A DNA stretch of 64,000 bases from Chloroflexi bacterium UBA4730. GTDB lineage: Bacteria; Chloroflexota; Limnocylindria; P2-11E. This document shows, in pieces, positions 34,028 to 54,487 of the stretch; within the stretch, counting starts at the first letter, position 1, and each line of letters starts with the position of its first letter. Under the pieces are notes generated by a model. That model made no database searches and was not told the origin of the DNA. It saw nothing but the letters and a program-made list of their open reading frames with translations. The DNA lies in contig DHJC01000023.1 of NCBI GenBank assembly GCA_002404155.1, positions 98,733-162,732 of the forward strand. The letters run 5' to 3'. The position numbers were made by a program, and so were the translations under genes.

Positions 34028-34518
34028 GCGATCTCGCCGTCCCGATCGAATACGACAACTGGGCGACCGAGAAGCTCGCGCAGTTCTGTGCCGCGCTCTC
34101 GCCCGAACAGCGCGCGCTCACGACCCCCGGGACGATGGGCACGATCGAGGCGACGCTCATCCACCTCGTCGGCGCGAAGGAGCGCTACGCGGCGGCCCTC
34201 CAAGGGACGGCCCCGCCGGACGATGCCGTCCGCGAGACGACGACGAAGGACCTCGGCCAGGTCGTCGCTCGGGCGAAGAAGCTGAGCGAGTGGTTCGCCG
34301 GCTTCGCGAAGGGCGACCTCGACCTCGATCGGGTCATCGAGCGTCGCGGGGCCGATGGCACAACGCAGCGCATGCCGATGGGGATCCTGATCGCGCAGTT
34401 CCTGCATCACGGGAACGAGCACCGAGCCCAGCTGGGCTCGATCTTCGGCGCGAACGGCATCGAGCCGCCCCACTACTCCGCGTTCCATTGGGGGCACGAG
34501 CTGGGGAAAATCAGCTAG
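34024..34518 (+). CDS. DinB-family protein, copy 2 (tandem paralog)
   Basis: ATGA overlap with copy 1. [13 protein letters not shown]...[13 protein letters not shown]...[24 protein letters not shown]. Confidence 0.75.
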
Positions 34519-35627
34519 GCGGGTGCCTCTTTCGTCGTGGTCACCGCGAACGCGGGCACCGGCTGATGGAATCCCTTCAGCTCGATCTCGCCGATCGACC
34601 TCGCGTCGACAGCGCCCTCGATGGCCGCATGTACGCGGCTGCTGACGAGGATCTCGCCGGCCTTCGCGGCTGCCGACAGCCGCGACGCCTGGATGACCAC
34701 CATCCCGACCGCGCCGTAATCGAACCGGCCCTCGAAGCCGATGCGGCCGAGCGTCGCGTAGCCGACCGCGATCCCGATGCCGAGCCCGAGGTCGTACCCG
34801 CGCTTCTTCCATCCTGCCTGCAACTCGGCGAAGCGCGTCTGCATCGCGAGCGCCATGCGCGTCGCCTGGAGATGCGGCTCGGGGATCGGCATCGGATCGT
34901 TGAAGAACACCATGATCCCGTCGCCAGCGAAGTGCTCGACCGTGCCCTCGTGATGGAAGATGAGCTCGCCCATCGCCGCGTGATACGCGCGCAGCACCCC
35001 GAGCGCCTCCTCGGGCTCCGCGGTCTCCGAGAACGACGTGAAGCCGCGCAGGTCCGCGAAGACGACGGTGATCTCGCGGCGGTGGCCCGCCAGGAAGTCG
35101 TCGGCCCCCTGCGAGACGACGACGTCGGCGATCTGCGGGGAGAGGAACCGGCGCAGCCGGCCGAGCCGTCCGAGCTCGTCGACCTGATCCCGCACGCGAT
35201 CCTCGAGCGTCCGGTTCCAGTCCGCGAGCTCGGTCTTCTGCCGCTCGATCTCGTCGTGATACGTCTTCACCCGCAGGAGCGAACGCACGCGGGCGAGCAG
35301 CTCAGGCTGGTCGAAGGGCTTCGCGATGAAGTCGTCGGCGCCGGCCTCGATGGCCCTGACCTTCTCGGGGAGGCCGCTCGCGGTGACCATCACGACCGGC
35401 AGGAAGCTCGTCTTTGGATCCGCGCGCAGCCGGCGGCAGACTTCGTAGCCATCGATGCCCGGCAGCATGATGTCCAGGAGGACGAGGTCCGGCTTCTCCT
35501 TCAGGACCTGGAGCAGCGCGTCCTCGCCCGTTCCCGCCGTGACGACCTCGAAGCCGTTCGGCGCCAGCACCGCTTCCATCAGCCGCAGGTTCTGCGGGAC
35601 GTCGTCGACCGCGAGGATTTTGGTCAT
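34515..35627 (-). CDS. Response-regulator receiver domain fused to a class III adenylate/guanylate cyclase
   Basis: REC: [13 protein letters not shown]...[17 protein letters not shown]...PVVMVTA...DDFIAKP. A coiled-coil linker follows. Cyclase: [45 protein letters not shown]. Confidence 0.9.
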
Positions 35628-36004
35628 TGTTTCGCGTCCAGATACGCCCGCACTTGGCCGGGGAAGTTCTTCACCTCGATCGGTTTCGCGATGAAGCCGT
35701 CGAAGCCGGCCTCGTTGAACCGCTCGCGATCGCCGGACATCACCGACGCGGTGAGCGCGACGGTCGGGATGTGCTTCGTCCGCGCGTCTGCGCGGATGCG
35801 CTTCATCGCGACGATGCCGTCGATCCCGGGCAGCTGGATGTCCATCAGGATCAGCGCCGGCAGATGCTCCAGGCTCATCGTGATCGCAGATTCGCCGTCG
35901 GTCGCCTCGACCGTGCGGTAGCCGTGGAACCGCAGCACGTCGCGGGCGAGCTTCAGGTTCTTCTCGTTGTCTTCCACGATGAGGATCAGCTCGTTCGCCA
36001 TCAC
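35624..36004 (-). CDS. Stand-alone response-regulator receiver (CheY-like)
   Basis: [13 protein letters not shown]...[16 protein letters not shown]...[10 protein letters not shown]...[13 protein letters not shown] overlaps are present at both ends. Confidence 0.9.
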
Positions 36005-39000
36005 GTCTCCTTCAATAGGGGCAGCGTGACCGTGAAAGTACTGCCTTTGCCCGGTGCGCTATCGACGCTGATCGTTCCGCCGTGCAGCTCGACCATCCGT
36101 TTCGACAGCGTCAGCCCGAGCCCGGTGCCCTCGCGAGACCGCTCGCCTTGGTGCGTCGCCTGCTGGAATTCCTGGAAGATCCGCTCCTGGTCCTCCGGCG
36201 CGATCCCGATGCCGGTGTCGTGCACGGCCAGGCGGACCTCGCCGTTCTCGCGCGCGGCGCGCAGGGTCACGGTGCCGCCGTCCGGCGTGAACTTCACGGC
36301 GTTCGCGAGGAGGTTCACGACGACCTGCTTCAGCTTGCGCTCGTCCGCGACCACCGTGTCGAGCTCCGGGGCGACCTCGAGCGCGAGTTTGATCCCGTGG
36401 CTCTGCGCGCGCTCCCGCACGAGCGTCACGGCGTTGTTCAGCGCGGCGACGAGCGAGAACGGCGCGGCCTCGAGCTCCATCCGGCCGGCTTCGATCTTGG
36501 ACAGGTCGAGGATGTCGTTGATCAGCGTGAGCAGATGTTGCCCCGAGCTCTTGACGTCTTCGAGGTAGTCGGCCTGCTGCTCGTTCAGCTCGCCGAACAT
36601 CCGCTGCAGGAGGACCTCGGAGAAGCCGATGATCGCGTTCAGCGGCGTACGCAGCTCGTGCGACATGTTCGCCAGGAACTCGGTCTTGTGGCGGTTCGCG
36701 ACCTCGAGCTGCGCCGACTTCTCCTGGATCTCCTTGAACAGCCGGACGTTCTCGATCGCGATCGCGGCCTGCCGAGCGAACGACTCGACGAGTTCGATCT
36801 CGCGCTCCTCGAACGGTCGGACGTCGATCCGGACGAGGATGATGACCCCGAGCGCCACATTGCCGCGCAGCAGCGGCACGCCGAGACCGGTACGCGCCCC
36901 GATGTCGATCATGCCCTTCGAGTCGGCGACGGTCGGATCGGCCCTGATGTCATTCACATGGACAGTTCGACGTTCGCGGTATGCGCGTCCCATGACCGAC
37001 GCGGCCTCTCCGATCCGAGCGGTCGGAGACAACGGAGCCAACGGGGAGCCTGCGGCCTCAGGCCGCTTGGACGCGACGATGCGGCCGGTGCCATCGGCAT
37101 CGATCTGACGGATCCAGCCATACTCGGCTTTGCACAACGCGAGCGATTTCTCGAGGACCATCTCGAACACGCGCTTGAGATCGAACGCGCTCTCGCTCAT
37201 CGCCGCCAGAAGCTCGCTCGTCGCGGTCTGCCGCTCGAGCGCCTCCTGCGTCTTGTTGAAGAGCCGGACGTTCTCCATCGCGATCGCCGCCTGGGTCGCG
37301 AAGGACTCGACGACCTCGATCTCGCGTTGCGAGAACGGCGTTGGCTCGCGACGGCCCAGTCGGATCACGCCGATCGGTTCGCCGTCCTTCATGATCGGAA
37401 CGGCCAGGCGGCTGCGGCTCGCGTGGGCGGACGCGACGGCGCGCATGATCGGATCCTCCAGCACGTCGGGGACGTGAACCGAGCGTCGGCTCTTCACCGC
37501 CCGGGAGATCATGGGATGCTCACTCTCATCCTCGATGTCGACGACTGATCCGAGGGGAAGCGAAGGCCAATCTGCGGAGACCGCGCGCAGCACGTAATCA
37601 GAGCTCGAGCCCTCCCGGGCATAGACGCCGGCGTGATTCGCATGACAGATATCGATCGCCGAGTCGACGATGGCCTGCAGGACAGGATCGATGTCGAACG
37701 CCGAGCCGCTGATCACGCGGAGCACCGAAGACGTCGCCGTCTGCCGCTCGAGCGCCTCCTTCGTCTCGGTGAACAGCCGGACGTTTTCGATCGCGATGAC
37801 GGCCTGGGCCGCGAACGTCTCCAGCGCACCGATCTCGCGCTCGTTGAATGGCCGGGCGTCGGAGCGCCGAAGCGCGATCGTGCCGATGGCCACCCCATCG
37901 CGGAGGAGCGGCGCGACCACGACGGCGTGGTAGCCGCCGGCCCGCGCGTTCTCAGCGCCGCGCGGGAACTCGGCCTCCGTTTGCAGATCCTGCACCGCGA
38001 TGGTCCGCGCCCCGAGGAAGGCACGGGAGCTCATAGAGGTCCCGTCGTTCGGGTAGCGCAGGTCGCTCGGGAGAGGCAACGGTCCGCTTTGCGCGGCCAG
38101 CCCCAGGTGGTCGCCGGCCGGAAGCATGACGATCGCGTTCTCGGCGGCGCAGAACCGCAGCGCGTTCTCGACGATCGCTTCGAGGACCGGCCGGACGTCG
38201 GTGGGTGACGCGGAGATCACTCGCAGGATCTCGCTGATCGCCGTCTGCCGCTCGAGCGACTCCTTCGTCTCGTTGAACAGACGCACGTTCTCGATCGCGA
38301 TCGCGGCTTGATCCGCGAAGGTCTGGACGAGCTCGACCTGGCGGTCCGTGAAAGGCACGGCTTCGCGGCGCCGGAGGACCACGGCACCGAGGGCCCGCTC
38401 CTTGACGAGCAGCGGCGCCGCAAGCAGGGCGCGCTGCCCGCTCCCGCCGTCAGCCAGCGCGAACGCCTTGCTCTGTGGGAACTCGTCGTCGGCCGTGACG
38501 TCCGTCGAGACAATCGTCCGCCGATCCAGGATCGCGCGGCCCGTCACCGACGCGCGGTCAAGCGGCGACGCGCTCGCCATCGAGACCGGACCATGGTGGG
38601 CTGACGGGACCGCCTGGTCGCCGCGAACGAGCAGCACTGAGGCATCCTCGGCGTTGGCGAAACGCGCCGCGCTGGAGGCGATCGCGTCGAGGACCGGCTG
38701 GATGTCGGTCGGGGACGCGGAGATCACCTTCAGGATGTCGCTCACCGCGGTCTGCCGCTCCAGCGATTCCGTTGTCTCGTTGAACAACCGAGCGTTCTCG
38801 ATGGCGATGACGGCTTGATCGGCAAAGCTCTCGACGAGCCTGATCTGCTCCTGCGAGAACGGACGCAGTGCTGTTCGCCACAACGCGATCACGCCGATCG
38901 CGCGGTTGCTGCTGATGAGCGGGACCGCGAGTAGCACGCGGAAGCCGCCGAGGCGTTTGGCGTCCGCGTAGGTGTACGTCGGATCGGCGTCGACGTCGGG

Positions 39001-41442
39001 GATATGGATCGTGCGCCGCTCGGCGAACGCCCGTCCGGTAGCCGATCCGGTGTGGTCCGTCCTGATCGGATGCTCGCGTTGCCACTCGCGCATGACATCG
39101 GCTCGCTCACCGAACGAAGCGCGCATCGCAAGGAGATCGCCGTCGACCTGGTACACGAAGCCGTTCTCAGCCTCAGTGAGCTGGCTGGCGTACGCGATGA
39201 CGGTGTGGAGCACGCCGGCGAGATCGAAGGCGGTCCCGCTGATCGCCTTCATGACCTCGCTGGTCGCGGTCTGACGCTCGAGGGAATCCGTCGTCTCGTT
39301 GAATAGCCGGACGTTCTCGATTGCGATCACGGCTTGATCGGCGAATGTCTGCACAAGCTCGATCTGCCGCAGCGAGAAAGGACGCACCTCGTTGCGGGTC
39401 AGGACGAAGACGCCGATGGGGAAGCCGTCCCGCATCAGTGGGACGCCGAGCATCGTCCGGTATCCACCCAGTCGCTGGAGGTCCTTTGCCTCGTACTCTT
39501 GGACCGTCTCGCGTTCGATCGCGACCCGCCCGATGAGCGTCGTGCGCCCGGCGACGCGCGGCGTGTCGTACGCGACGTGCTCGTACTCTTCGTTCTTCGG
39601 CCCGTAGAACGCCGCCGTGCGGTACGCCGATCCATCCCAGCGGTGGATCGATCCGCGCTCGGCCTCGCACAGCCGCGCGGCGTACTCGAGGACGGTATCG
39701 AGCACCGGTTGGAGGTCCTGGCCCGAACGGCTGATCACATTAAGGATTTCGGCGGTCGCAGTCTGCCGCTCGAGCGCCTCCTTCGTCTCATTGAACAGGC
39801 GAACGTTCTCGATCGCGATGACCGCCTGGTTCGCGAACGTCTCGACAAGCGCGATCTGCTGGGCGGTGAATGGGCCCGGCGCCTTGCGCCGCAGCTGGAT
39901 CGTTCCGATCACTTCCTCCCGCCGCCGCAACGGGGTGACGATCGCCGCCCTAAACGGCAGCGTTGCGGCCCGACCTTGCCCGAGCCCATCAGGGAAGTCC
40001 GCGATGGTGGCAGGGTCTTGCAGATCGGGGAGGTGGATCGTGACCCGGTCGAGGACGGCCCGGCCCTGGACTCGGTCACGCGTCACCTTGGCATCAAACT
40101 CGGTCTCGTCGATCGGACCAACGTGCGCCCACGCGGAGATCCGGCCTTCGTGGAACAGATGGAGCGCGGCATCCTCGGCACCGCAGTAGCGGACCGCATT
40201 CGTTGCGATCGCGTCGAGCACCGGCTGCACGTCCGTCGGCGACTCCGAGATCGCGCGGAGGATCTCGGCGGTGGCGGTCTGCCGCTCGAGCGCCTCCTTC
40301 GTCTCGTTGAACAGACGCACGTTCTCGATGGCGATGACCGCTTGGGACGCGAACGTCTCGACCAGCTCCACCTGCTGGGGAGTGAACGCGCCGGCCTGGC
40401 GTCGCCGGAGCTGGATGGCGCCGATGGCTGCCCCGTTCTTGATCAGCGGGGCGGCGAGGAAACCGCGGTAGCCCTGTCGCCGGGCGATCTCCTTGCCCTC
40501 GCGGAACTGGTCATCGTTGAGCGACTCCATGTCCGCGATGTTGAACGTCCGCGCCTCCCTGATCGCCCGGGTCGTCACCGAGAGCGATTCGATCGAGTAC
40601 GCGCGGTACGCCCACTCGATCGGCCCATGGTGCGCGATGAGGCTGACCGATCCGTCCTTGATGAGGGCAACGCCCGCATCCTCCACTGCGGTGAAGTCGG
40701 CGGCGCTCTTGGCGATCGTCTCGAGGACCGGTTGGACGTCGGTCGGTGAGCTTGAGATCACCCGCAGGATCTCGCTGATGGCCGTCTGCCGCTCCAGCGC
40801 CTCCGTTGTCTCGGTGAAGAGACGGGCGTTCTCCATCGCGACCGCGAGCTGGTCGACGAAGGTCTCCATGAGCGCGATCGTCGGCTTGTCGAAGCCGCCG
40901 GGATCGTCGCGCGACATCGTGAGCACGCCGATGGACTCACCGTCTCGGAGGATCGGCACCGACAGCCGGGTCCGGCGCTTCTCGGCATCCGGAAGCTTGG
41001 GCTCCGCGAACTTCGTGTCGGCGTAGTGGAAGCGCTGACCGCTGAGGGCCGCCCGGCCCCACAGCGATCCGGGCTCCGCCTCCATCCGCATGCCGCGTTC
41101 GAGGCCGGTCGAGCCGTACGTCGCGCCGACGACCCACGCGTCCGCCTCGCGGCGGATGAAGCTGCCATTGTCCGCGCCAGCCAGCCTCTTGGAAGCCTTC
41201 ACGATCATGTCGGCGACCTGATCGAGGCCGACCGCGGGATCGGCGAGGGATCGCATGACCTGGCTGACGACGGCGAGGTGATCGGCCGCGCCCGCGGCAG
41301 GGCCCGGCGCCGCAGTGCGCTTCGGCGCGGCAGCCTTTTTCGGCGCCGCCCGTACCGTCTTCTCCTTTGCTCCCGCCCTCACCCTGCGCAGTATCGGCGG
41401 GTCCTCGGCCCCTGGGCTAGGGCCGTCCGTTACCTGGGACAC
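36001..41442 (-). CDS. Cytoplasmic sensor histidine kinase with nine tandem GAF domains + HisKA + HATPase_c (1813 aa)
   Basis: Nine GAF modules of about 170 aa are joined by near-identical linkers, (I/M)EN(V/A)RLF(N/T)ET(K/T)E(A/S)LERQTA(T/I)(A/S)E(I/V)L. The H-box is [21 protein letters not shown], the N-box is [12 protein letters not shown], and the G-boxes are DTGIGI and [13 protein letters not shown]. No TM segment was seen. Confidence 0.9.
36734..40843 (-). repeat. Intragenic periodic repeat: nine copies of a 35-65-bp conserved segment spaced about 510 bp apart (GAF-GAF linker helices)
   Basis: On the plus strand, GTCTGCCGCTCGAGCGCCTCCTTCGTCTCGTTGAACAGACGCACGTTCTCGATCGCGAT-like segments occur near 36734, 37220, 37730, 38235, 38745, 39255, 39755, 40275 and 40781. 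Confidence 0.8.
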
Positions 41443-41505
41443 CTGGCGCGGGTGCTCTTCGCAACGCTCGCCAACGCTCCTACCCTGAACGCCCCGGGAG
41501 GGTGG

Positions 41506-43638
41506 ATGGACATCTGGCAGACCCTGCGTGACCGGCTGGACTACGCATCGTTCGTTCCGACGCCCGTCTCGGACGTCGAGCGCGCCGATCTGCGCCGCCG
41601 CGACGGCAATCCGTACACGATGCTGAAGAACCCGACCGGCGACCGCGGCGCGGGTCGCTACCTGCGTCTGGACCCCGCCGACGTCGAGCTGTTCGAGCTC
41701 ATGGATGGCCGGCGCTCGATCCAGGAGATCCTCGTGGCGCAGCTCGAGCGCACCGGCGTGTTCGCGCTCGATCGGCTGGCGCGGCTCACTGCCGCGCTCC
41801 GGGCCAATGGCTTCTTCGGTGAGGAGCCGCCGGTCCTGTACGAGAAGCTGGCCGCGCGCAAGGCGATGCGCGATCCGATCGTGCGCGCATCGCTGTTCCT
41901 CCGCCGGCTCGTCCTCTGGGACATCGCACGGTGGTCGAACGCGGACCGCGTCGTCGATCGCGTGTACCGCCTCGGCGGTTGGCTCGCGTTCACGCGCATC
42001 GGCGCGTCGCTCCTGGTCGGCTTCGGTCTTTACGGGCTATGGCTGTGGTTCCAAGAGGTCCGTGATCCGAAGCTGCAGCTGGTCACGATCGACGGCTCGT
42101 ACGCGCGCGGGATCCTGGCCCTCATCGTCCTGCAGGTGATCTCGATCTCGGTGCACGAAGCGGGTCACGCGCTCGCGATCCGCCACTACAAGCGCCACGT
42201 CCGGCGGTTCGGCGTCGCGATGTACTACCTCTTCCCGTGCTTCTACGTCGACTCGACCGACATGACCCTTGGCTCACGTGGGCAGCGCATCGTCGTCTCG
42301 CTCGCCGGGCCGTTCGCGGGCCTCACTACCGCGGCCGCCTGTGCGGTGGCGGCCGCGGCCCTGCCCGGTACGCTCGCCGGCGAGCTCGCGTTCAAGGCCG
42401 CGAGCCTGTTCGTCTTCCAGTTCATCTTCAACCTGCTCCCGATCCTCGAGCTCGACGGGTACCACGTGCTCGTCGACGCGGTCGATGCGCCATTCCTCCG
42501 GCAGCGCGCGATGTGGTTCGTGCGCAGCGCCGCGCTCCGGAAGCTGCGTGCGCGCGCCCGGTGGACGCGTGAGGAGGCCGGGCTCGCGCTGTTCGGCGTG
42601 GCCGCGATCGTCACGTCCCTGCTGACGCTCGTCATGTCGATCCTGCTGTGGCAGTCGCGCATCGCCAGAGCGGGGCGCGAGCTCCTCGCGGGCGGTCCGG
42701 CCGGTCTCGCCGTGCTCGCCCTCCTCGTCCTCGTGTTCGTTGGACCGCTCGCGGTCGCGGTGATCGCGCGGCTCATCGGCATCGTGAGAACGAGCGTCAC
42801 GCTTGCGACGGCGCGCAGCCGCGCTGCGACCGCGCGCGAACAGGGGGCGCGCACGGCGATGCTCGGGCGGGTCCGATTCCTCGCCGGCCTCCCGGGCCCG
42901 ACACTCGCCGCGCTCGCGTCACACCTGCGCGTCGAGCGGGTCGACGCGGGCCACACCGTCATCACGGCCGGCAGCGTCGGCGATCGCTTTTATCTCGTGC
43001 GGTCCGGACGGCTCCAGGCGGTCGCGCCCGACGGCGCCGTCCTCGGCGAGATCGCCCCCGGCGAAGGCTTCGGCGAGCTCGCGCTCATCGACCGGACGCC
43101 GCGCACCGCGACGGTCCACGCGCTCGAGGCGGCCGAGCTTTGGTCGCTCGACAGCTCGCATTTCCAGCGCTGGGTCCGCGACCGCTTCGAGATCGCAGCG
43201 CGGATCCGCGCCGATCAGGGGCAGCGTCAGGCGCTCGCGACGTTGCCATTCTTCCGCGACCTCGAGGGCCGCGAGCTCGACCGGATCGCCGCCCGGGTGC
43301 AGACCCGCCGGTACGAAGGTGGCGAGGTCGTCATCCAGGCGGGCGAGACCGGTGGCGGCTACTACCTTATCCGCGAGGGCACCGCCGACGTCACCCTTCC
43401 TGATGGCCGCTACGTCCGGACCCTCGGACCGGGGGACGGCTTCGGCGAGCTGGCCCTCATCTTCGGCGTGCCCCGGACCGCGACCGTAACGGCCAAGGGC
43501 CCGCTCGCCGTCGGGGTCCTCGGCCGGCCGGACTTCGCGGCGCTGGTCGCGGCGTCAGGTGAATCGATGCGTGATTTCCGCGCGCGGACGGGCCATTATG
43601 TCGGTGCCGGCCTCGGTGGGGCCGTTGGGGGAGCGTGA
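41506..43638 (+). CDS. Site-2 (M50) intramembrane metalloprotease with an N-terminal PqqD/RRE-like cytoplasmic domain and two C-terminal cyclic-nucleotide-binding domains
   Basis: ATG at 41506 with a [21 protein letters not shown] lies in a TM helix, and the second S2P motif is [15 protein letters not shown], with about 6-7 TM segments. The N-domain is [39 protein letters not shown]. The CNB cassettes are [21 protein letters not shown] and [21 protein letters not shown]. Confidence 0.85.
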
Positions 43639-43854
43639 GTGGACTGCTGGATCTGCGAGCGGCCGGCGCTCGCCGCGTGCCGGTTCTGCGGTCGGGGGGC
43701 GTGCCGGGAGCACGCGAAGAGCCACCCGTTCGTTCTAGACGTGTATCGCGGCGAAAAGCATCGTTCGCTGCGCGCCCTCGTCGTGGAAGACGCGATCCAT
43801 TGCGGGGTCTGCCGGCCCAGGAGCGAGCCGGTGGATATGCCCGAGCTGGAATAG
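43639..43854 (+). CDS. Small Cys-rich zinc-ribbon protein (DUF2180-like pattern)
   Basis: GTG follows the protease TGA immediately. The 71-aa protein VDCWICERPALAACRFCGRGACREHAKSH...IHCGVCRP has the pattern CxxC-x7-CxxCGxGxCxxH...CxxC and no TM segment. Confidence 0.6.
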   Translation: MDCWICERPALAACRFCGRGACREHAKSHPFVLDVYRGEKHRSLRALVVEDAIHCGVCRPRSEPVDMPELE

Positions 43855-43986
43855 GGGAGGCGACGCCCGGGACGGTCTGAAGGTTAGGTAGATCACGTAT
43901 CAGGCGTGCCGGCGTGTATCGAGCGGGGTCCGCGTTCGGCGCACATTTCACGCAATTCCACAAGGAAAGAAAGAAGGAGCAAGGCG

Positions 43987-44976
43987 ATGGCAAGCAAGAA
44001 CCTAGGGGCAGTGATCCAGCGAGCGATCAGCGACGGGGCGTTCCGTCGCCAGCTTCAGTCCGACCCTGCCGCGGCGCTCCGCGGCTTCAACCTCACGGCG
44101 GACGAGGTCGCTGCGATCCGCAGCGGTGACTCGAGCAAGCTCATGTCGCTCGGTGTCGACCAGCGGATGAGCAAGGCGTTCTCACTCGGTGGCGGGATCG
44201 GCGGCGGCGCGGCACGCACGTCGGTCTCCGACCTGAGCGGCGGCGCCACGGCGAGCACGATCGCGAACGACCCGACAGCCGGCGCCCGCGAAGGCATCGT
44301 CGGCGACCCGACCTCCGGATCGCGCGAAGCGATCACGACCGGAAACGTCGGCGGCACCCGCGCGGTCAACGACTCGGCGCCGTTCGATGGCGGCCGGGCT
44401 AGCTTCGCCGACCCGACCACAAGCGGCACCCGTGCGATCCATGACAGCGAGCCGGCTGATCTCCGTTCAGCGGCGAGCACCGGCGGCTTCTCCGGCACCC
44501 GCGCGGTCAACGACAGCGAGCCGTTCGCTGGCAACGCCGCGATCAACGACAACATGGCAGCGGCGAACGCCGGCCGCGGCGGATCGCTCACCGGCGACAT
44601 GTCCGACGGCAGCGCCCGGGCCATCCACGACGTAGCTCCGTTCGGCACAACTGGATCCTCGGCGATCGAGGACCCGAACTCACCGGAGTACGCGGCGGCT
44701 AACGACGGTGGGACCCTCGCCAGCCGCATGGCCGACGCAGGCACGGCCGACGCGGTCCGCGCGATCCACGACGTCGCACCGTTCGAGGGCAACGTCAACG
44801 CGGCCGCATCGAGCGGCGGCGAGTTCCTCGGCGGCGACGCCCGCCTCGACCCGGGCACCGACAGCTCGCACGGCTTCGTCCCGAGCGACTCGGCGGACGT
44901 GCAGCGCGAGCTGCTCGATCCAGGCGACGACCACGGCAACGCTCTCGGCAACGTCGGCGGCGGCCACCCCAGCTAG
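43987..44976 (+). CDS. Repeat protein with an NHLP/Os1348-like leader-type N-terminal domain (hypothetical)
   Basis: ATG at 43987 with a GAAGGAG SD (43973-43979). The N-terminus is MASKNLGAVIQRAISDGAFRRQLQSDPAAALRGFNLTADEVAAIRSGD, followed by the Gly run SLGGGIGGGA. At least 5 repeats follow: GTRAVNDSAPF, GTRAIHDSEPA, GTRAVNDSEPF, SARAIHDVAPF, AVRAIHDVAPF. The upstream 27 codons of the track ORF were discarded. Confidence 0.7.
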   Translation: MASKNLGAVIQRAISDGAFRRQLQSDPAAALRGFNLTADEVAAIRSGDSSKLMSLGVDQRMSKAFSLGGGIGGGAARTSVSDLSGGATASTIANDPTAGAREGIVGDPTSGSREAITTGNVGGTRAVNDSAPFDGGRASFADPTTSGTRAIHDSEPADLRSAASTGGFSGTRAVNDSEPFAGNAAINDNMAAANAGRGGSLTGDMSDGSARAIHDVAPFGTTGSSAIEDPNSPEYAAANDGGTLASRMADAGTADAVRAIHDVAPFEGNVNAAASSGGEFLGGDARLDPGTDSSHGFVPSDSADVQRELLDPGDDHGNALGNVGGGHPS

Positions 44977-45002
44977 CAGGTCAGCGCACCCTCTACGTCC
45001 AC

Positions 45003-45031
45003 GGAAGCGGCCCCCGACCGGGGCCGCTTTC
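45003..45031. terminator. GC-rich stem-loop between convergent genes (candidate bidirectional terminator)
   Basis: GGAAGCGGCCCC (45003-45014) pairs with GGGGCCGCTTTCC (45020-45031/2) around a 5-nt loop. It lies between the repeat-protein stop (44976) and the Crp stop (45037). Confidence 0.5.
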
Positions 45032-45036
45032 CGCGT

Positions 45037-45747
45037 CTAGTACCGGATCTCGCTCTGGAGGAGCGCGCGGTCCTTCAGCTGGATGTGGCGCCGGCCGATC
45101 TTGATCCCGCCGCGGTTCTCCAGGTCCGCGAGCACCCGATTCACCGAGACCCGCGTGGCCCCGACGAAGCTCGCGAGATCCTCCTGCGTCAGGTCGACCT
45201 GGTTGCCCCCCGAGGCCTCCGCGAGATCGAGGAGGCACTTCGCCACCCGACCCGGCAGGTCGAGGAACACGAGGTCCTCGACGTGCCCGGTGCTGTGACG
45301 GACCGTCTTCACCAAGAGGGCGAGCATCCGGCGCATCGCATCGGGGTTGCGTTCGAGCGTGGTGAGGAACTCCTGGCGCGCGAGCGCGAGGGTGTGGGTC
45401 TCGGTGAGCGCCGTGACCGTGGCCGACCGCGGACCTTCGTCGAAGAGCGCAAGTTCGCCGAAGACGTCGCCACCGCGCTCGAGCGCGATCACTACTTCGT
45501 GGCCCTGCTCGTCGGGCACGGATACCTTCACCGTGCCGGAAGCGATCAGGAACACCTGGCCTGCCGCATCGTCACGGTGGAAGACGACTTCGTCGCGAGC
45601 GAACTGACGCGGACGCATCTTCGAGGCGAGAGCGAGCCGGTCGTCGGCGCTCAGGCAGGCGAAGAGCGGGCTCTCCGCGAGGAAATCGGCGATCGCCGTG
45701 GCGTCCACGTCGGCTGAATAGTGCCGCCCGGCGTCAAGCGGCATCAC
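45037..45747 (-). CDS. Crp/Fnr-family transcriptional regulator (cNMP-binding + HTH)
   Basis: The CNB domain is LFACLSADDRLALASKM...GDVFGELALFDEGPRSATVTA. The C-terminal HTH is LTQEDLASFVGATRVSVNRVLADLENRG. Confidence 0.9.
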   Translation of the reverse strand: MMPLDAGRHYSADVDATAIADFLAESPLFACLSADDRLALASKMRPRQFARDEVVFHRDDAAGQVFLIASGTVKVSVPDEQGHEVVIALERGGDVFGELALFDEGPRSATVTALTETHTLALARQEFLTTLERNPDAMRRMLALLVKTVRHSTGHVEDLVFLDLPGRVAKCLLDLAEASGGNQVDLTQEDLASFVGATRVSVNRVLADLENRGGIKIGRRHIQLKDRALLQSEIRY

Positions 45748-45779: not shown

Positions 45780-46721
45780 CTAGCTGAGGCCCCCGACGAG
45801 CTCCAGGAAGCGTGGCTTCACCTCGGTCATCGTCCGCTCGATCGTCTCGCGGTCGAACGGCGGCGACATCCCGAACAGGAACCCCTTCACTCCGACCTTG
45901 TGGTATTCGACGAGCTTTTTCGCGATGTCGTCGGGCTTCCCGAGCAGCCCCGGCCGGTTCGGCGCCTCGACCTTGTTCCGCGCGGCGATCTCGCGCATCC
46001 GTTTGTCGACCGTGTTCAGGTCGTCGCGCACCAGGACCGACCCGCCGGCCGTCGGCGCGATCTCGTTGTAGTTACGGCCGACGTCGTCGCAATGCCTCTT
46101 CAGGACGCCGAGCTTGTGCTTGATCACGTCCGCGGTCCCGAAGCCGTGCCACCAGTCCGCGTAGTGCGCCGTGATCTTGAGCGTCACCTGCTCACCGCCG
46201 CCGCCGATCAGGACCGGCAGGCGCTTCTGGATCGGGCGGGTGCCGAGCGTCGCGCGCTCCAGCTGGTAGTACTTGCCCTGGTACGTCACTTTTCCGGTGT
46301 CGAGCAGGCCGCGGATGATGCGCGTCGCCTCGCGCAGCTTCGCGAGCCGGATCGCCGGCGTGTCGAAGGCGATGCCGTACATCTTGTGCTCGTGCTCGTT
46401 CCACGCGGCACCGATCCCGAGGACCGCGCGACCGTTCGTGATGTTGTCGAGCGTGGCGGCCATGTTCGCGAGCACGGCGGGGTGGCGGTAGGTGTTTCCC
46501 GTGACCAGCATCCCGATCAGCGGCCTCTTCGTGATCGCGCCGAAGGCCGCGAGCACCTGCCAGCCCTCGAGGTTCGGTCCGGTGACGTCGCCCATGAGCG
46601 GGACGAAGTGATCCCAGGTCATGAGGACATCCCAGCCTGCCTGCTCGGCAAGAAGCGCGGCCTCGCGCATCTCATCCCAGGTCGTGTACTGCGGGTGCAG
46701 CTGCAGGCCGAAGAAGGTCAT
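45780..46721 (-). CDS. LLM-class F420-dependent oxidoreductase
   Basis: MTFFGLQLHPQYTTWDEMREAALLAEQAGWDVLMTWDHFVP...LVTGNTYRHPAVLANMAATLDNITNGRAVLGIGAAWNEHEH...LIGGGGEQ. Confidence 0.85.
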   Translation of the reverse strand: MTFFGLQLHPQYTTWDEMREAALLAEQAGWDVLMTWDHFVPLMGDVTGPNLEGWQVLAAFGAITKRPLIGMLVTGNTYRHPAVLANMAATLDNITNGRAVLGIGAAWNEHEHKMYGIAFDTPAIRLAKLREATRIIRGLLDTGKVTYQGKYYQLERATLGTRPIQKRLPVLIGGGGEQVTLKITAHYADWWHGFGTADVIKHKLGVLKRHCDDVGRNYNEIAPTAGGSVLVRDDLNTVDKRMREIAARNKVEAPNRPGLLGKPDDIAKKLVEYHKVGVKGFLFGMSPPFDRETIERTMTEVKPRFLELVGGLS

Positions 46722-46753
46722 TGCCCGCCTCCGAGCGTATAGTCCGAACGCCG

Positions 46754-48097
46754 ATGGCGCTCACCCAGGATCGCACCGACGTCGCGAAAGTCCTCGCGGA
46801 CACGCAGAAGCACGTCCTTGTCAACTGGTCCGCGCAGGGGAATATTTCGCCCCTCGTGATCACTGGGGCGGACGGCGTCTGGCTCCATTCCGGTGATCGC
46901 CGGATCCTCGACTTCAGCTCCGAGCTCGTGAATTCGAACCTCGGCCACGGCCATCCGCGCGTGGTACGCGCGATCCAGGAGCAGGCCGCGATCCTCAACT
47001 ACGTGACTCCCGCCTTCACCACCGAGGCCCAGGCGACGCTCGCCCGGAAGCTCGCGGACGTCGCACCGGGGGACCTGACGAAGACGATCTTCACGACCGG
47101 CGGCACCGAGGCCAACGAGAACGCGATCAAGCTCGCGCGCCTGTACACCGGCCGCCACAAGATCCTCACCCAGTGGCGGAGCTTCCACGGGCAGACCCAG
47201 GGCGCGATGACCCTCGGTGGGGATAACCGCCGCTGGGCGAACGAGCCGGGCATCACCGGTGTCGTGCACTTCCTCAATCCCGATCCGTATCGCTCGGTCT
47301 TCGGCAGCGATGCCCGCAAGGCGCTCGCCCACGTCGAAGAGGTCATCTGGTACGAGGGGCCGCAGTACATCGCGGCGATCCTGCTCGAGCCGATCGTCGG
47401 CACGTCGGGGCTGCTCGTCCCGCCCGACGGATTCCTGCAAGGCCTGCGGACCCTCTGCGACACGTACGGCATCGTCCTCGTGTTCGACGAGGTCATGACC
47501 GGCTTCGGGCGAACCGGGAAGTGGTTCGCGTCCGAGCACTGGAACACCGTGCCCGACATCATGACCTTCGCGAAGGGCGTGAACTCCGGCTATGTCCCGC
47601 TCGGCGGCGCGATCGTGAACGAGAAGATCGCGAAGCACTTCGACGACAACGTGTACTGGGGCGGCCTCACGTATAGCGGCCACGCCCTTGCCTGCGCGGC
47701 CGGCGTGGCGACGATCGAGGCGTACGAGAGCGAAGACCTCATCGGCAACTCCGCACGGATGGGTGAGCTGCTCGGGCGCCAGCTGAACGCGCTCGCGGCA
47801 AAGCACCCGTCCATCGGCGACGTCCGCGGCCGTGGCCTCTTCTGGGGCATCGAGCTCGTGAAGGACCGCGGCACGAAGGAGATGCTCGAGCAGTGGAACG
47901 GGCCGTCGAGCGCGCTCGCCAACGCCCTCAAGGGCGAGCTCATGAAGCGGAACGTGTACGTGTTCTGCCGCTGGAACATGTTGTTCGTCGCCCCGCCGCT
48001 CATCGTCGACGAGGAAGAGCTGCGCATCGGTGTCAAGGCGATCGACGAGGCGCTCGAGGTCGCGGATCGCTTCGCGGCGACCGGCAAGCTCGCATAG
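46754..48097 (+). CDS. Class III (omega) aminotransferase
   Basis: ATG at 46754. TTGGTEANENAIKLAR, VFDEVMTGFGRTG and TFAKGVNSGYVPLGG (PLP lysine). Confidence 0.9.
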   Translation: MALTQDRTDVAKVLADTQKHVLVNWSAQGNISPLVITGADGVWLHSGDRRILDFSSELVNSNLGHGHPRVVRAIQEQAAILNYVTPAFTTEAQATLARKLADVAPGDLTKTIFTTGGTEANENAIKLARLYTGRHKILTQWRSFHGQTQGAMTLGGDNRRWANEPGITGVVHFLNPDPYRSVFGSDARKALAHVEEVIWYEGPQYIAAILLEPIVGTSGLLVPPDGFLQGLRTLCDTYGIVLVFDEVMTGFGRTGKWFASEHWNTVPDIMTFAKGVNSGYVPLGGAIVNEKIAKHFDDNVYWGGLTYSGHALACAAGVATIEAYESEDLIGNSARMGELLGRQLNALAAKHPSIGDVRGRGLFWGIELVKDRGTKEMLEQWNGPSSALANALKGELMKRNVYVFCRWNMLFVAPPLIVDEEELRIGVKAIDEALEVADRFAATGKLA

Positions 48098-50261: not shown

Positions 50262-51283
50262 TGCAGCGCTGGCGTCCGCCCGAGGGCTGGCGGCGCATCA
50301 CGACCCTCGATTCGCACGCTGCGGGCGAGCCGCTCCGCATCGTCACCGGTGGGGTCGATCCGATCCCGGGCCGGACGATCCTCGAGAAGCGGCGCTACGC
50401 GCGCGAGCACCTGGACGGACTGCGGCGCGCGATCGTGTTCGAACCGCGCGGCCATGCCGACATGTACGGCGCGATCCCCACCGAGCCGGTGACGGCCGAC
50501 GGCGACCTCGGCGTCCTCTTCATGCACAACGAGGGCTGGAGCACGATGTGCGGCCACGGGATCATCGCCCTGACCACCGCGCTCCTCGAGACCGGGGAGC
50601 GCTCCGGCGATGTCGTTAGATACGACGCGCCGCCCGGCCGGGTGACCGCGCGAGCGACCCGCGATGGGACACGCGTGCGCGAGGTCGCGTTCGAGAACGT
50701 GCCGTCGTTCGCCGTCGCGCTCGACGAGACGGTGGATGTCGAGGGGCTTGGCGAGGTCCGGTACGACCTCGCGTTCGGCGGTGCGTTCTACGCGTTCGTC
50801 GACGCCGATGCCCTCGGCGTGCCGCTCGACGAAAGCGGCTTTCGGCAGTGCATCGACGTCGGGATGCGCATCAAGCGCGCGGTCATGGCAAGCACACCGG
50901 TGCGGCACCCCGAGTCGCCTGATTCCGCGGACCTCTCCTTCTTGTACGGGACGATCCTTACCGGGCGGCCCCACCAACCCGGCGCGGACTCGCGGAACGT
51001 CTGCGTGTTCGCGGAGGGAGAGGTCGACCGGTCGCCCACCGGGACCGGCGTGAGCGCCCGTGTGGCGATCGAGCATGCGCGCGGGCGGCTGCGCGACGGC
51101 GCGAGCTTCACCGTCGAGAGCATCATCGGCACCCGCTTCCGTGGTCGCGCGTTGCGGGCAGCGACGGTGGGTCCATATGCCGCCGTGGTGCCGGAGGTCG
51201 CGGGCTCCGCGTGGACCGTCGGTCGCTCGGAGCTCTGGATCGCGCCCGACGATCCGCTCCGCGAGGGCTTCGTCCTCCGCTAG
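50261..51283 (+). CDS. Proline-racemase-family enzyme of the Cys/Thr type (trans-3-hydroxy-L-proline dehydratase-like)
   Basis: GTG overlaps the upstream TAG. HAAGEPLRIVTGG, STMCGHG (Cys codon 50549-50551) and EVDRSPTGTG (Thr codon 51038-51040, where racemases/epimerases carry Cys). Confidence 0.8.
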   Translation: MQRWRPPEGWRRITTLDSHAAGEPLRIVTGGVDPIPGRTILEKRRYAREHLDGLRRAIVFEPRGHADMYGAIPTEPVTADGDLGVLFMHNEGWSTMCGHGIIALTTALLETGERSGDVVRYDAPPGRVTARATRDGTRVREVAFENVPSFAVALDETVDVEGLGEVRYDLAFGGAFYAFVDADALGVPLDESGFRQCIDVGMRIKRAVMASTPVRHPESPDSADLSFLYGTILTGRPHQPGADSRNVCVFAEGEVDRSPTGTGVSARVAIEHARGRLRDGASFTVESIIGTRFRGRALRAATVGPYAAVVPEVAGSAWTVGRSELWIAPDDPLREGFVLR

Positions 51284-52293
51284 ACCGTCGTGCCTGCGAG
51301 CAATCCGCGCAGCTTCGGGATGATGTCCGTGCCGTATGCCTCGAGCTGCCGCTCCTCGTCACCGCTCATGAGGTAGAGGTTGAACTGCGACATCCCGGCT
51401 TCTGCGAGTGCGTGCAGCTTCTCGACCTGCTCGGCGACCTCACCGGTGACGCAGAAGCGGTCCACTGATTCGTCGTCGACGAAGCCGGCGTTCGACGAGC
51501 CTGACTCCGCATGGTGCTTGTAGTCGTATCCCGGCCGGTTACGCACGTAGCTCGTGAGGTCCGCCGGCAGGCCCTGCTCGCCGTAGCGGCGCACCAGATC
51601 GACGACGTGGTTGCTCACGAGGGCGGGGAACCAGCGCACCCGCTCGCGCACATCCGCCTTGCGGCCCACGTGCGCGGGCGCCGCGACCATCACTTTCACC
51701 TCGCTCGCGTCGCGCTTCGCGGCGCGGGTGCCCTCGCGCAGTAGACCGACGCACCACCGCACGAGGCTCGGGTCGGCGATCTGGATGACCGCGCCGTCCG
51801 CGATGCGGCCGCTGATCGCGAGGGCCTTCGGTCCGTAGCCGGCGATCCACACCGGCAGGTCGTACGGCTCGGCCCAGTCGAGCTTGAGGTCAGTGCCGTC
51901 GTACGTCACCGCGCGACCTTCGCAGAGATCGCGGATCGCGACCGTGGCCGCCTCGAGGTCGTCGAGGGTGGTCGGCTTCTTGCCGAGCACGCGGCGCGCG
52001 GAGTCGCCGCGCCCGATGCCAAGGTCCATGCGGCCTTTTGACAGGATCTGGAGCACCGCGAGGGTGCTCGCCGTGACCGACGGCTCGCGCGTTGCCGGGT
52101 TAGTGACGCACGTGCCGAGCCGCAGCCTCGTGCTGTTCTGGGCCATGAGCGTGAGGAGCACGTACGGCTCCTTCCAAAGAACGTGGCTGTCGAAGACCCA
52201 GCCGTGGGTGAAGCCGCACTGCTCGGCGAGCTTCGTCAGCGAAACGACGCGCTCGAGCGGATGGTCGGGCTTGAGGGTGAAGCCGAATTCCAT
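51280..52293 (-). CDS. LLM-class F420-dependent oxidoreductase (Mer/methylene-H4MPT-reductase-like subgroup)
   Basis: MEFGFTLKPDHPLERVVSLTKLAEQCGFTHGWVFDSHVLWKEPYV...LGTCVTNPATREP...DLGIGRGDSARR. Confidence 0.85.
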   Translation of the reverse strand: MEFGFTLKPDHPLERVVSLTKLAEQCGFTHGWVFDSHVLWKEPYVLLTLMAQNSTRLRLGTCVTNPATREPSVTASTLAVLQILSKGRMDLGIGRGDSARRVLGKKPTTLDDLEAATVAIRDLCEGRAVTYDGTDLKLDWAEPYDLPVWIAGYGPKALAISGRIADGAVIQIADPSLVRWCVGLLREGTRAAKRDASEVKVMVAAPAHVGRKADVRERVRWFPALVSNHVVDLVRRYGEQGLPADLTSYVRNRPGYDYKHHAESGSSNAGFVDDESVDRFCVTGEVAEQVEKLHALAEAGMSQFNLYLMSGDEERQLEAYGTDIIPKLRGLLAGTTV

Positions 52294-52309: not shown

Positions 52310-52708
52310 TTACGCGTGCCACTCCACCGTGCGTTCGGCGGTGAGCTTGATCACGAGGTTTCCTGCGAGCGGGAGGTCGTCGTACTGCGGGTATTTCGCG
52401 GTGAGGAGGATGAGCGCCTCGTCGCGTTCCCGTCCGTCCTCGAGCATCTCGGCCGGACCCTCGACGAGTACGTACGAGAGGTTCTTCCAGTCCTCGCTCC
52501 ATCGATCGACGACGAGTGAGGCCCGGCCGGTCTCAGTGATGTTCCGCACGCGCCGGAGGAGCATCGTGCGCTTCGGCTTGCCGTCGATCGCGGTGTAGAT
52601 GTACGGCGGTAGCCAGGCGAAGCACACCGGGACCACGTGCGGGCGACCATCGCCGCTCGCCGTAGCGAGGTGGCCGAGGCGCGCGGTGGCGAGCAGATCC
52701 TCTTTCAG
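52310..52708 (-). CDS. PPOX-class (pyridoxamine-5'-phosphate-oxidase fold) probable F420-dependent enzyme; start codon uncertain
   Basis: LATARLGHLATASGDGRPHVVPVCFAWLPPYIYTAIDGKPKRT...RASLVVDRWSEDWKNLSYVLVEG resembles the Rv0121-type split-barrel family. The only junction start candidate is the CTG at 52708 (CTGA with the upstream stop). The Arg/Gly-rich 5' part of the track ORF overlaps the upstream gene. Confidence 0.65.
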   Translation of the reverse strand: MKEDLLATARLGHLATASGDGRPHVVPVCFAWLPPYIYTAIDGKPKRTMLLRRVRNITETGRASLVVDRWSEDWKNLSYVLVEGPAEMLEDGRERDEALILLTAKYPQYDDLPLAGNLVIKLTAERTVEWHA

Positions 52709-53703: not shown

Positions 53704-53734
53704 GCCTTCACGCTATCAGCGAAACTCTGAGGCG

Positions 53735-54487
53735 GTGTCCGACGTCACGCTCATCCCCATCGACGGCCTTCCAGAGATCAAGCCGGGCGACGACCTCGCC
53801 GCGATGCTCATCCGCGCGCTTCGGGCCAGCGGCCGTTCGTTCGAGGTCGGCGATGTGCTCGCGCTCGCCCAGAAAGTCGTGTCGAAATCCGAAGGGCGCA
53901 TCCGCAAGCTCGCGGACGTCGTGCCTGGCGCGGAGGCCCTGCGTATGGCCGACGAGTCCGGGAAGGACCCGAAGAATTTGCAGGTCGTGCTCGACGAGAC
54001 CGCGCGCATCGTCCGGTGGCAGCGCGGCGTGCTCATCGTCGAGACGAAGCATGGCTTCGTCTGCGCGAACGCCGGCGTGGACCACTCCAACGCCGGCGCG
54101 CCGGACACGCTCATCCTCCTGCCGGTCGACCCGGACGCCTCGGCCGGGCGCATCCGCGAGGGCATCAGGAAGGCGACCGGGGTCGACGTCCCCGTGGTGA
54201 TCACCGACACGTTCGGCCGGGCCTGGCGCGAAGGCCACATGAATATCGCGATCGGCATCAGCGGCCTCCCCGCGCTCCGCCGGTACATCGGCGAGTTCGA
54301 CCCGGATGGCTATGAGCTGCGCGTGACCGAGATCGCGATCGCCGACGAGATCGCGGCCGCGACCGAGCTCGTGATGGGGAAGCTCGATCGCCGGCCCGCG
54401 GCGATCGTGCGGGGACTCACGCGCCCCGAAGGCAGCGAGACCGCGCGCACGTACGTGCGACCGCACGACAAGGACATGTTCAGGTAG
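53735..54487 (+). CDS. cofE: Coenzyme F420-0:L-glutamate ligase
   Basis: LIPIDGLPEIKPGDDLA...LALAQKVVSKSEGR...HGFVCANAGVDHSN...VVITDTFGRAWREGHMNIAIG...DEIAAATELVMGK. The start is the GTG at 53735, or alternatively the GTG at 53696. Confidence 0.85.
   Translation: MSDVTLIPIDGLPEIKPGDDLAAMLIRALRASGRSFEVGDVLALAQKVVSKSEGRIRKLADVVPGAEALRMADESGKDPKNLQVVLDETARIVRWQRGVLIVETKHGFVCANAGVDHSNAGAPDTLILLPVDPDASAGRIREGIRKATGVDVPVVITDTFGRAWREGHMNIAIGISGLPALRRYIGEFDPDGYELRVTEIAIADEIAAATELVMGKLDRRPAAIVRGLTRPEGSETARTYVRPHDKDMFR

Follow-up and report, generated by a model that had tools for sequence, protein, structure and literature searches.

Introduction

Bacterial cyclic nucleotides are known mainly for the control of transcription, of channels and of a few enzymes. 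Site-2 protease (S2P)-type enzymes usually cleave membrane-embedded segments, and in one of them, SpoIVFB, a CBS domain makes the cleavage of pro-sigma-K dependent on ATP. Here we describe a gene cassette that encodes an S2P-type metalloprotease of family M50 fused to two cyclic nucleoside monophosphate (cNMP)-binding (CNB) domains, together with a small cysteine-rich protein of zinc type, a precursor-like repeat protein and a Crp/Fnr-family regulator. The cassette lies in a 64-kb stretch of contig DHJC01000023.1 (G+C about 69%), hereafter the window, and the database names of matching proteins place its host in the Candidatus Limnocylindria of the Chloroflexota. On balance we lean toward the reading that this conserved cassette carries out a cyclic-nucleotide-controlled processing of a precursor-type protein, to which a two-component input has been attached in this lineage.

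Among the closest described systems are three groups. The first comprises pathways for RiPPs (peptides that are made by ribosomes and modified after translation) in which a membrane M50 protease is encoded beside a small precursor gene, as here: EpeP/YydH for the epipeptides, TglG/TmoG for the pearlins and the daptide protease. The window protease differs from all of these in carrying a fused RiPP recognition element (RRE, predicted) and two CNB domains and in having an obligate Cys7His partner, and the radical-SAM, PEARL or daptide tailoring genes of those pathways are missing here. The roles of M50 proteases in RiPP maturation have been reviewed (PMC10885120).

SpoIVFB and other ligand-domain S2P proteases form the second group. 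They share with the window protease an S2P-type core tied to a small-molecule-binding cytoplasmic domain, whereas the sensor found here is a tandem CNB module like those of PKA and PKG and not a CBS or PDZ domain, and the candidate substrate is predicted to be soluble and recognized by the RRE. The third group is defined by the substrate. Os1348, an 85-aa precursor-like protein required for antibiotic activity in Pseudomonas sp. Os17 (PMC7726476), and the SonA borosin precursors have an N-terminal domain homologous to that of the window repeat protein, and ECOD groups the Frankia_peptide family with the NHLP, Nif11 and ComX leaders (PMC12353581). Unlike Os1348, the window protein has a 257-aa repeat tail, and the Os1348 cluster encodes a GNAT protein, an HEXXH protein and a SagB-type dehydrogenase but no M50-CNB protease, Crp or Cys-rich protein. 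A curated precedent for CNB domains in bacteriocin/NHLP-type peptide systems is TIGR03896 ("bacteriocin-type transport-associated protein"), to which both the protease and the regulator of the window show weak matches (scores of 37 and 32 against a cut-off of 161); that family, however, is transport-associated and not a protease, and is itself uncharacterized.

Results

Organization of the Locus

The features of the locus, in the order of their positions in the window, are the following:

34515–35627, minus strand: receiver (REC) domain, coiled-coil linker and non-canonical class III cyclase domain with the residues His/Gly/Ile (Pfam Response_reg and Guanylate_cyc; alignment)
35624–36004, minus strand: stand-alone REC protein, translationally coupled to the kinase gene (Pfam Response_reg, E=1.5e-22)
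36001–41442, minus strand: soluble sensor histidine kinase with nine GAF domains, HisKA and HATPase_c (Pfam)
41443–41505: divergent spacer of 63 bp between the kinase operon and the protease gene, without a Crp-type box (position weight matrix, PWM, scan)
41506–43638, plus strand: M50 (S2P-type) metalloprotease with an N-terminal RRE/PqqD-like domain, about six transmembrane segments and C-terminal tandem cNMP_binding domains (Pfam)
43639–43854, plus strand: Cys7His small protein of 71 aa (comparison across loci)
43882–43897, plus strand: Crp-type box GGTTAGGTAGATCACG (conserved columns, PWM)
43987–44976, plus strand: N-terminal Frankia_peptide/NHLP-clan (LigA-like) domain of about 70 aa followed by a 257-aa repeat tail (NF038399)
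45037–45747, minus strand: Crp/Fnr-family regulator with cNMP_binding and HTH_Crp_2 domains (Pfam; PDB 3D0S)

A preliminary description of the window had listed six open reading frames (ORFs) with their domains, among them a Crp/Fnr gene converging on the repeat-protein gene. The ORF listing reproduced the coordinates, Pfam backed each domain, and the two convergent genes were found to have 60 bp between their stop codons. The ATGA overlaps attributed to the kinase operon are present at the REC/REC-cyclase junction only, whereas the kinase/REC junction reads GTGA or, should translation begin at the second codon, TGATG. The 63-bp divergent spacer holds if the kinase begins at the first GTG of its ORF, and the spacer previously given as 132 bp extends from the stop of the 71-aa ORF to the ATG at 43987. 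A scan for sigma-70 promoters and terminators between 41300 and 45900 gave nothing useful.

The Protease and Its Candidate Substrate

The protease, a product of 710 aa, is 100% identical over its full length to a database protein. It scores 43.4 bits against the Pfam M50 cut-off of 27.2, and the HEAGH motif at 217 and the NxxPxxxLDG-type motif at 309–318 are both intact within about six hydrophobic segments; an even number of these would put both termini in the cytoplasm. Two NCBIfam models of RiPP proteases match part of it below their cut-offs, the daptide protease model at residues 47–411 (134.9 against 300) and the YydH/LiaK model at residues 202–327 (64.1 against 225).

At the N-terminus, residues 48–103 match Pfam PqqD (E=0.0024), and a profile built from 24 diverse protease N-termini found the RRE of PaaA as its best PDB match (E=0.0085). 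The AlphaFold2 model of residues 1–125 (pLDDT 84) consists of three strands followed by three helices, and Foldseek matched it to the lasso-peptide RRE TbiB1 in complex with a leader (probability 1.00, TM 0.68–0.70) and to TglI (probability 0.99). The protease thus has the PqqD-like RRE of a RiPP-processing protein, with good fold matches and sub-threshold sequence matches. The C-terminal tandem CNB resembles PKA/PKG regulatory modules, and among close as well as distant relatives its phosphate-binding Glu and Arg show little or no variation. The phosphate-binding cassette of the Crp regulator is also intact, which supports the earlier proposal of two cNMP readers, the protease and Crp. From its sequence and its model, the architecture of the protease appears suited to binding a LigA-like domain.

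Such a domain is encoded downstream. The likeliest start of the repeat protein (329 aa) is the ATG at 43987, which follows a GAAGGAG ribosome-binding site. Its first 70 residues or so match the NCBIfam family NF038399 ("Os1348 family NHLP clan") with 61.5 bits against a cut-off of 40, and weakly also Pfam Frankia_peptide and LigA. The best solved homologues of this region are 6LK7 (E=1e-6), a protein of 85 aa that is labeled nitrile hydratase alpha chain, as is Os1348, and the SonA RiPP precursors (E=0.003). By these matches the repeat protein bears a recognized leader-type domain, as expected of a RiPP precursor.

In the relatives, this domain is well conserved up to a ...GVDQRMSKAF end and the sequence is hypervariable beyond it. 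The tails measure 120–470 aa, with about 15% Asp/Glu and about 50% Gly/Ala/Ser/Thr, Cys is missing from nearly all of them, and their tandem repeats differ by lineage. That of the window is likewise acidic and rich in Gly/Ala/Ser/Thr and contains five RA(V/I)(N/H)D(S/V)(E/A)P units. In the 27 complete tails, 56 copies of a motif R-x(1,2)-[IV]-x-D were counted, where shuffles predict 6.4. At the DNA level no tandem repeats were found in the repeat tail or the GAF array of the window, the GAF unit exceeding the 500-bp period limit of the tool. The domain and the tail together suggest that the repeat protein is of the precursor type and the likely substrate of the RRE-bearing protease.

A Conserved Cys7His Protein Follows the Protease Gene

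The 71-aa ORF, overlooked in the preliminary description, starts with a GTG at 43639 right behind the protease stop codon. Its product is 70–93% identical in 46 related loci and often better conserved than the protease, with the invariant residues C3, C14, C17, C22, H25, C55 and C58. The family comprises 82 clusters, all of which are unnamed or called "hypothetical protein". No Pfam or NCBIfam family covers it (Pfam C5HCH, DUF2180 and B-box match weakly), and its AlphaFold2 model (pLDDT 89) gave no meaningful fold match in the PDB.

Across phyla, the gene adjoins every M50-2xCNB gene for which downstream flank is available, and it was seen without an M50-CNB gene only on two short contigs (L069 and L070). 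Judging from this gene context, the Cys7His protein is probably an obligate partner of the M50-CNB proteases.

A Crp-Type Box Precedes the Repeat-Protein Gene

The regulator encoded convergently to the repeat-protein gene matches Pfam cNMP_binding, HTH_Crp_2 and Crp, and its phosphate-binding cassette reads FGELALFDEGPRSATV. Its best solved homologue is the Crp of Mycobacterium tuberculosis (Rv3676; PDB 3D0S, E=4e-35), with which it shares the intact cassette and a TGTGA-N6-TCACA-type box.

That box was derived from the conserved columns of 41 aligned spacers between the Cys-rich ORF and the ATG of the NHLP-like gene, which give the consensus nGTnA-N6-aTCACa. In the window it is centered about 97 bp upstream of the ATG at 43987 (the counterpart in locus L038 is TGTGATCACGATCACA), and compared with the TGTGA-type box, the left half-site in the window's clade is degenerate (GGTTA). 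With a matrix made without the window's own site, positions 43882–43897 are the top match in the whole window, at 18.4 bits; 11 matches reach at least 11 bits, against 4.2 in shuffled sequence. In the relatives the box lies 2361–2454 bp past the protease start, with the exceptions of L044 (2267 bp) and L021 (2935 bp, where the spacer measures 699 bp). All loci with a precursor gene have it, the three without an NHLP-like gene lack it, and the distant locus L065 carries a box CGTGACGCACGTCACA in its spacer. A palindromic site of the TGTGA-N6-TCACA type is therefore found at the predicted target promoter.

The preliminary description had pointed to both the 63-bp and the 132-bp spacer as places for a Crp-type site. 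The conserved box lies in the latter, and the former has no match of at least 11 bits; no Crp-type site recurs in it or elsewhere upstream of the protease in the relatives. In contrast to CRP-family receptors generally, the regulator appears to be a dedicated, local one, encoded beside the precursor-like gene that it probably controls.

Four other box-like matches of 13–16 bits occur in the window, at 52340–52355, 54685–54700, 16137–16152 and 37632–37647. The first is palindromic and lies upstream of a luciferase-like gene (51280–52293), and the last falls within the kinase gene. In locus L028 an identical box, CGTCATGAGCATTACA, is present twice, about 2380 and 3684 bp past the M50 start and hence 1.3 kb apart, which may reflect a duplicated promoter or gene segment.

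The Cassette Is Conserved Within Limnocylindria

A scan of a genome collection yielded 59 loci, nearly all of them labeled Limnocylindria or Chloroflexota, with protease identities of 53–93%. The order M50-CNB protease, Cys-rich ORF, NHLP-like gene and convergent Crp is kept in nearly every locus that is long enough to be compared, and L031, L034 and L035 lack only the NHLP-like gene.

Some Variants Outside the Clade Have a Sigma Factor as Regulator

A second scan, of 1.84 billion representative proteins, returned 635 relatives at E<1e-30, including full-length M50-2xCNB proteins at 30–38% identity. About 15 distant loci were compared, around such proteins and around distant Cys-rich genes. 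The M50-CNB and Cys-rich genes, with a Frankia_peptide gene and/or a regulator gene, recur in distant lineages in shuffled order:

L060 and L071–L074: M50-CNB, Cys-rich, M16 peptidase, extracytoplasmic function (ECF) sigma factor, 138-aa protein, Frankia_peptide gene (L060 is a short contig that stops past the ECF gene), with an additional, divergent cyclase-NB-ARC-TPR gene in L071 and L072
L065, L066 and L075: M50-CNB, Cys-rich and Crp on the same strand
L062 and L063: M50-CNB, 78-aa Frankia_peptide, methylase, Cys-rich (Cys-rich ORF in L063)
L067 and L068: M50-CNB and Cys-rich in both; FHA-cyclase and five Frankia-like peptides in L067

The regulator is thus a Crp in the Limnocylindria clade and an ECF sigma factor in another, and REC, STAND and FHA architectures are all represented among the cyclases next to the cassette, in two orientations. 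The five peptides of L067 (1244–4408; labeled as a Dehalococcoidia metagenome-assembled genome) are tandem paralogues of 65–66 aa that differ mainly in their last five or so residues.

The 138-aa protein of the sigma variant combines an N-terminal ZAS-type zinc finger (zf-HC2, E=3e-4) with a C-terminal Frankia_peptide-like domain (E=9e-5) ending in ...DERVSKL. It was located at L071 10110–10529 and L073 6784–7200, where it adjoins the ECF sigma and M16 peptidase genes. The fusion suggests that the domain acts as a handle for the M50-CNB protease.

The same fusion bears on an alternative to a precursor-processing cassette, namely that the system is a switch by regulated proteolysis, in which the Frankia_peptide-like domain would tag proteins as targets and the acidic repeat protein would serve as a regulator or scaffold, to be destroyed or set free upon cNMP signaling without yielding any bioactive peptide. 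An anti-sigma module carrying the domain beside an ECF sigma factor, the long, acidic, disordered-looking tails and the lack of a conserved tailoring enzyme or exporter agree with it. It accounts less well for the short paralogue arrays of the relatives, whose hypervariable tails of 5–35 aa are typical of natural-product precursors, for the excess of repeated short motifs in the tails, and for a domain family known from RiPP precursors (PMC7726476; PMC12353581). We regard the switch as unlikely.

The Adjoining Kinase Operon and Its Non-canonical Cyclase

The translated kinase shows an H-box (HELRTPLN) together with N, G1 and G2 boxes, including GTGLGL. The orthologues of the REC-cyclase keep the receiver residues DD, D52, T82 and K103, and the single REC has the equivalent residues. 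We infer a phosphotransfer from the kinase to the two receivers, which the operon structure and the conserved order of the three genes back. A feedback through cNMP-binding GAF domains was considered and rejected; the one GAF unit that was queried had no likeness to such GAFs and matched weakly those of the cyanobacteriochrome and DevS types. The kinase varies in length across the relatives examined (L016, L021, L030, L037 and L076), from 773 aa in L076 to 1813 aa in the window, which implies roughly one to nine GAF units.

The cyclase domain was aligned with CyaB (3R5G), Cya2 (2W01) and CyaC (1WC0), without gaps around the motifs. Both metal-binding Asp residues are kept: FADLRGFT and AGDG align with all three references, and the two Asp are invariant in 15 syntenic orthologues, as are the His and Arg described below. 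At the first specificity position a His replaces the Lys of CyaB or the Glu of Cya2, and at the second a Gly takes the place of the CyaB Thr (Gly or Ala in the orthologues), so that the pair is neither Lys/Asp(Thr), as for ATP, nor Glu/Cys(Gly), as for GTP. The transition-state motif reads IQASR, with the Arg kept and Ile in place of Asn; Ile is found in 13 of the 15 orthologues and Asn in the other two (L021 and L048).

Among the 120 closest homologues, the specificity residues are His (Arg in eight) and Gly/Ala, as read in the 101 that were matched by the motif pattern, and the transition-state residue is Ile in about three quarters. The clade shares with CyaB, Cya2 and Rv1900c the fold, both metal Asp, the Arg and a regulatory-domain linker. 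It departs from them in its specificity residues, with His replacing Lys/Glu and Gly/Ala replacing Asp/Thr/Cys throughout, and, in about three quarters of its members, in an Ile that replaces the Asn. We know of no characterized enzyme with the His/Gly/Ile set.

The preliminary description had intended to read the substrate from a Lys/Asp or Glu/Cys pair and had named the loss of the metal Asp or of the transition-state Asn/Arg as evidence against its circuit. With His/Gly instead of either pair and Ile at the third position, the product cannot be called as that of an ATP- or a GTP-using enzyme on these residues. The metal Asp and the Arg passed that check, and the missing Asn, on the terms of that description, weighs against the REC-cyclase as the source of the nucleotide. 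The enzyme nevertheless looks functional, if non-canonical, because its domain is conserved at the level of its neighbors (81–90% identity) and its linker aligns to a phytochrome-cyclase fusion, a regulated cyclase.

The trio of kinase, REC and REC-cyclase genes adjoins the cassette in about 17 loci and in two arrangements, one divergent, as in the window, and one co-directional, in which the cyclase ends about 6–30 bp upstream of the protease (by the ends of tblastn matches; L030 and L037–L040). In L076 an insertion sequence (IS) element (6052–7135; DUF772 and DDE_Tnp_1) lies between the protease gene and the kinase operon, leaving the divergent arrangement intact.

Other loci have alternative upstream neighbors. 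In some this is a STAND-type cyclase (L020, L053 and also L052), whose gene is directly divergent from that of the protease in L020 and L053; a protein of this architecture is likewise encoded upstream of the protease in L071. In others it is the transhydrogenase gene pntA, without a cyclase. Upstream sequence of 4 kb or more is available for 27 loci, 16 of which encode at least one cyclase domain there, whereas 206 kb of sequence downstream yielded none. Because adjacency to the trio is variable and the trio occurs without the cassette, it represents an independent module that was coupled to the cassette in one lineage. The earlier linkage of trio and protease is borne out in relatives, in both arrangements, and by its distribution the operon is an accessory, optional input and not a fixed part of the system.

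A STAND-type cyclase is also present in the window, as had been reported, outside the cassette:

2991–6305, minus strand: cyclase-STAND protein with Guanylate_cyc, AAA_16 and TPR domains, a possible second cNMP source (Pfam)

It keeps the Lys, the Asn, the Arg and both Asp residues, with Gly at the Asp/Thr position. Its gene converges on one for an S9 prolyl-oligopeptidase-family protein (95–2986, plus strand), the ORF ends being 4 bp apart.

These data allow a second alternative, that the REC-cyclase is no source of the nucleotide at all, being a pseudo-cyclase or making another product, that the cNMP read by protease and regulator is supplied by different enzymes, STAND-type cyclases for example, and that the kinase operon is adjacent for other reasons. 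The replacement of Lys, Asp/Thr and Asn by His, Gly and Ile, the occurrence of trio and cassette without each other, and a STAND cyclase in the window that retains Lys, Asn and Arg and whose kind adjoins the cassette elsewhere are all in line with it. Yet the adjacency of trio and cassette has survived two rearrangements and an IS insertion, the metal Asp, the Arg and the linker of a regulated cyclase are conserved in a domain that has diverged no faster than its neighbors, and the Asn appears dispensable in Rv1900c, which is reported to be active with His in its place, other established cyclases lacking it as well (PMC4886424). We judge this second alternative to be unlikely.

Tailoring Candidates and Neighboring Genes

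No peptidase-containing or other ABC exporter is encoded in the cassette. A classical NHLP system with a C39 peptidase-ABC exporter was rejected, as no such gene is present and Gly-Gly is not a constant ending of the conserved domain. A daptide pathway was rejected as well, with the protease at 134.9 against 300 and an aminotransferase at 246.7 against 450 in the respective models. An F420 luciferase-like oxidoreductase (45780–46721) and an aminotransferase (46721–48097) were considered as tailoring enzymes; they are syntenic inside Limnocylindria only and belong to generic families, and since the window has several other such oxidoreductases, we treated the two as neighbors.

Four genes of the window encode luciferase-like oxidoreductases and one an F420 gamma-glutamyl ligase, the five lying at 8657–9517, 45780–46721, 51280–52293, 52705–53703 and 53696–54487. 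The gene at 45780–46721, the sole one of the four compared with NCBIfam, matches an F420-dependent family; it is syntenic with Crp in many Limnocylindria loci and in L076, and absent from that place in distant loci outside the clade. The genes flanking the cassette are metabolic (transhydrogenase, amidohydrolases, DinB, F420 oxidoreductases, aminotransferases and a peptide importer).

Discussion

The reading that we favor builds on sequence and comparison, which establish the domains, the protease motifs, the cNMP-binding cassettes, the RRE fold as modeled, the gene order and the Crp box. According to it, the nine-GAF kinase would sense a ligand or a state and phosphorylate the REC-cyclase, the single REC serving as a competitor or a shuttle. 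The REC-cyclase, with its non-canonical active site, and perhaps other cyclases too, would then make a cyclic nucleotide. Crp would bind this nucleotide and the conserved box and change, presumably turn on, the transcription of the precursor-like gene, and the same nucleotide would bind the tandem CNB of the protease and release its activity. Such an arrangement would be a feed-forward one, with a single nucleotide acting on transcription through Crp and on cleavage through the protease. The RRE would dock the LigA-like N-terminal domain of the precursor-like protein, and the protease would either cut the leader-like domain off the repeat tail or excise repeat units, with the Cys7His protein working as its subunit or adaptor.

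It is very unlikely that the locus is instead a generic cNMP circuit, in which a CNB-bearing S2P carries out regulated intramembrane proteolysis of some membrane regulator and neither the repeat protein nor the small ORF takes part, since, for all its S2P-like motifs and transmembrane core and the one distant variant with an ECF sigma factor and a ZAS-type protein, a classical S2P theme, those two genes are the most constant neighbors of the protease, the protease has a modeled leader-binding RRE fold, the Crp box precedes the repeat-protein gene, the ZAS protein ends in a Frankia_peptide-like domain without an evident transmembrane segment, and the cassette of the window encodes no membrane-anchored regulator.

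Several observations weigh against the favored reading. With regard to the substrate, hydropathy detects no hydrophobic segment in the product of 43987–44976, its 257-aa tail far exceeds a normal core peptide, and short tails occur in distant relatives only. Neither a tailoring enzyme nor an exporter accompanies the cassette consistently across its variants, and a classical RiPP pathway is therefore not established. The sequence matches of the RRE fall below family thresholds and its Foldseek E-values are weak (0.04–0.06), with good probability and TM values.

On the regulatory side, the REC-cyclase is without the canonical Lys, Asp/Thr and Asn, and its activity may be weak or absent or its product a different one. 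Of the 27 relatives that extend 4 kb or more upstream, 11 encode no cyclase domain there. A trio of 64% identity whose kinase is of the dCache-HAMP-GAF type is not accompanied by a cassette within 10 kb. The sites that the PWM scores are also those used to make it, so that its scores in the relatives are partly circular; the fixed position of the box in otherwise diverged DNA is not circular. Cleavage, ligand binding and phosphotransfer are, for this cassette, all inferred from sequence.

The locus had previously been interpreted as a self-contained cNMP circuit. The linked genes, the two readers and a Crp box survive from that interpretation, which had treated an accessory trio as its core and had missed the precursor-type output and the Cys-rich partner. 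The scan of 37 window proteins, which cover part of the window, turned up no phosphodiesterase, so that "self-contained" overstates the case. The cassette is not a self-contained circuit, and a RiPP pathway is not proven for it either.

All its domain families are known, and their combination appears to be undescribed. Literature searches (M50 with cNMP, site-2 protease with cNMP-binding, Franean1_4349) returned no account of this cassette, nor of an RRE-bearing, cNMP-binding M50 protease, of the Cys7His partner or of a link of Frankia_peptide with Crp, ECF or cyclase genes, and no curated family covers the protease or its Cys7His partner. As a tentative extension, one we would not yet expect to hold, M50-CNB proteases with an RRE and a Cys7His partner could form an undescribed, widespread, second-messenger-gated class that recognizes LigA-like domains and either releases peptides from hypervariable tails or destroys anti-sigma fusions, the input in Limnocylindria being a His/Gly/Ile cyclase clade that perhaps makes a non-canonical cyclic nucleotide.

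The interest of the cassette lies in its being widespread, coherent and directly testable, and its cyclase clade offers a direct test of what governs substrate choice in class III cyclases. If the favored reading is true, the known targets of cyclic nucleotides would be joined by a post-translational output, namely a protease that, on binding such a nucleotide, matures or destroys proteins of the precursor type. It would also supply a trigger for silent peptide gene clusters, which added nucleotide might activate, and would give a role to three uncharacterized families that are common in soil Chloroflexota: the M50-CNB proteases, the 71-aa Cys7His proteins and the long-tailed Frankia_peptide proteins.

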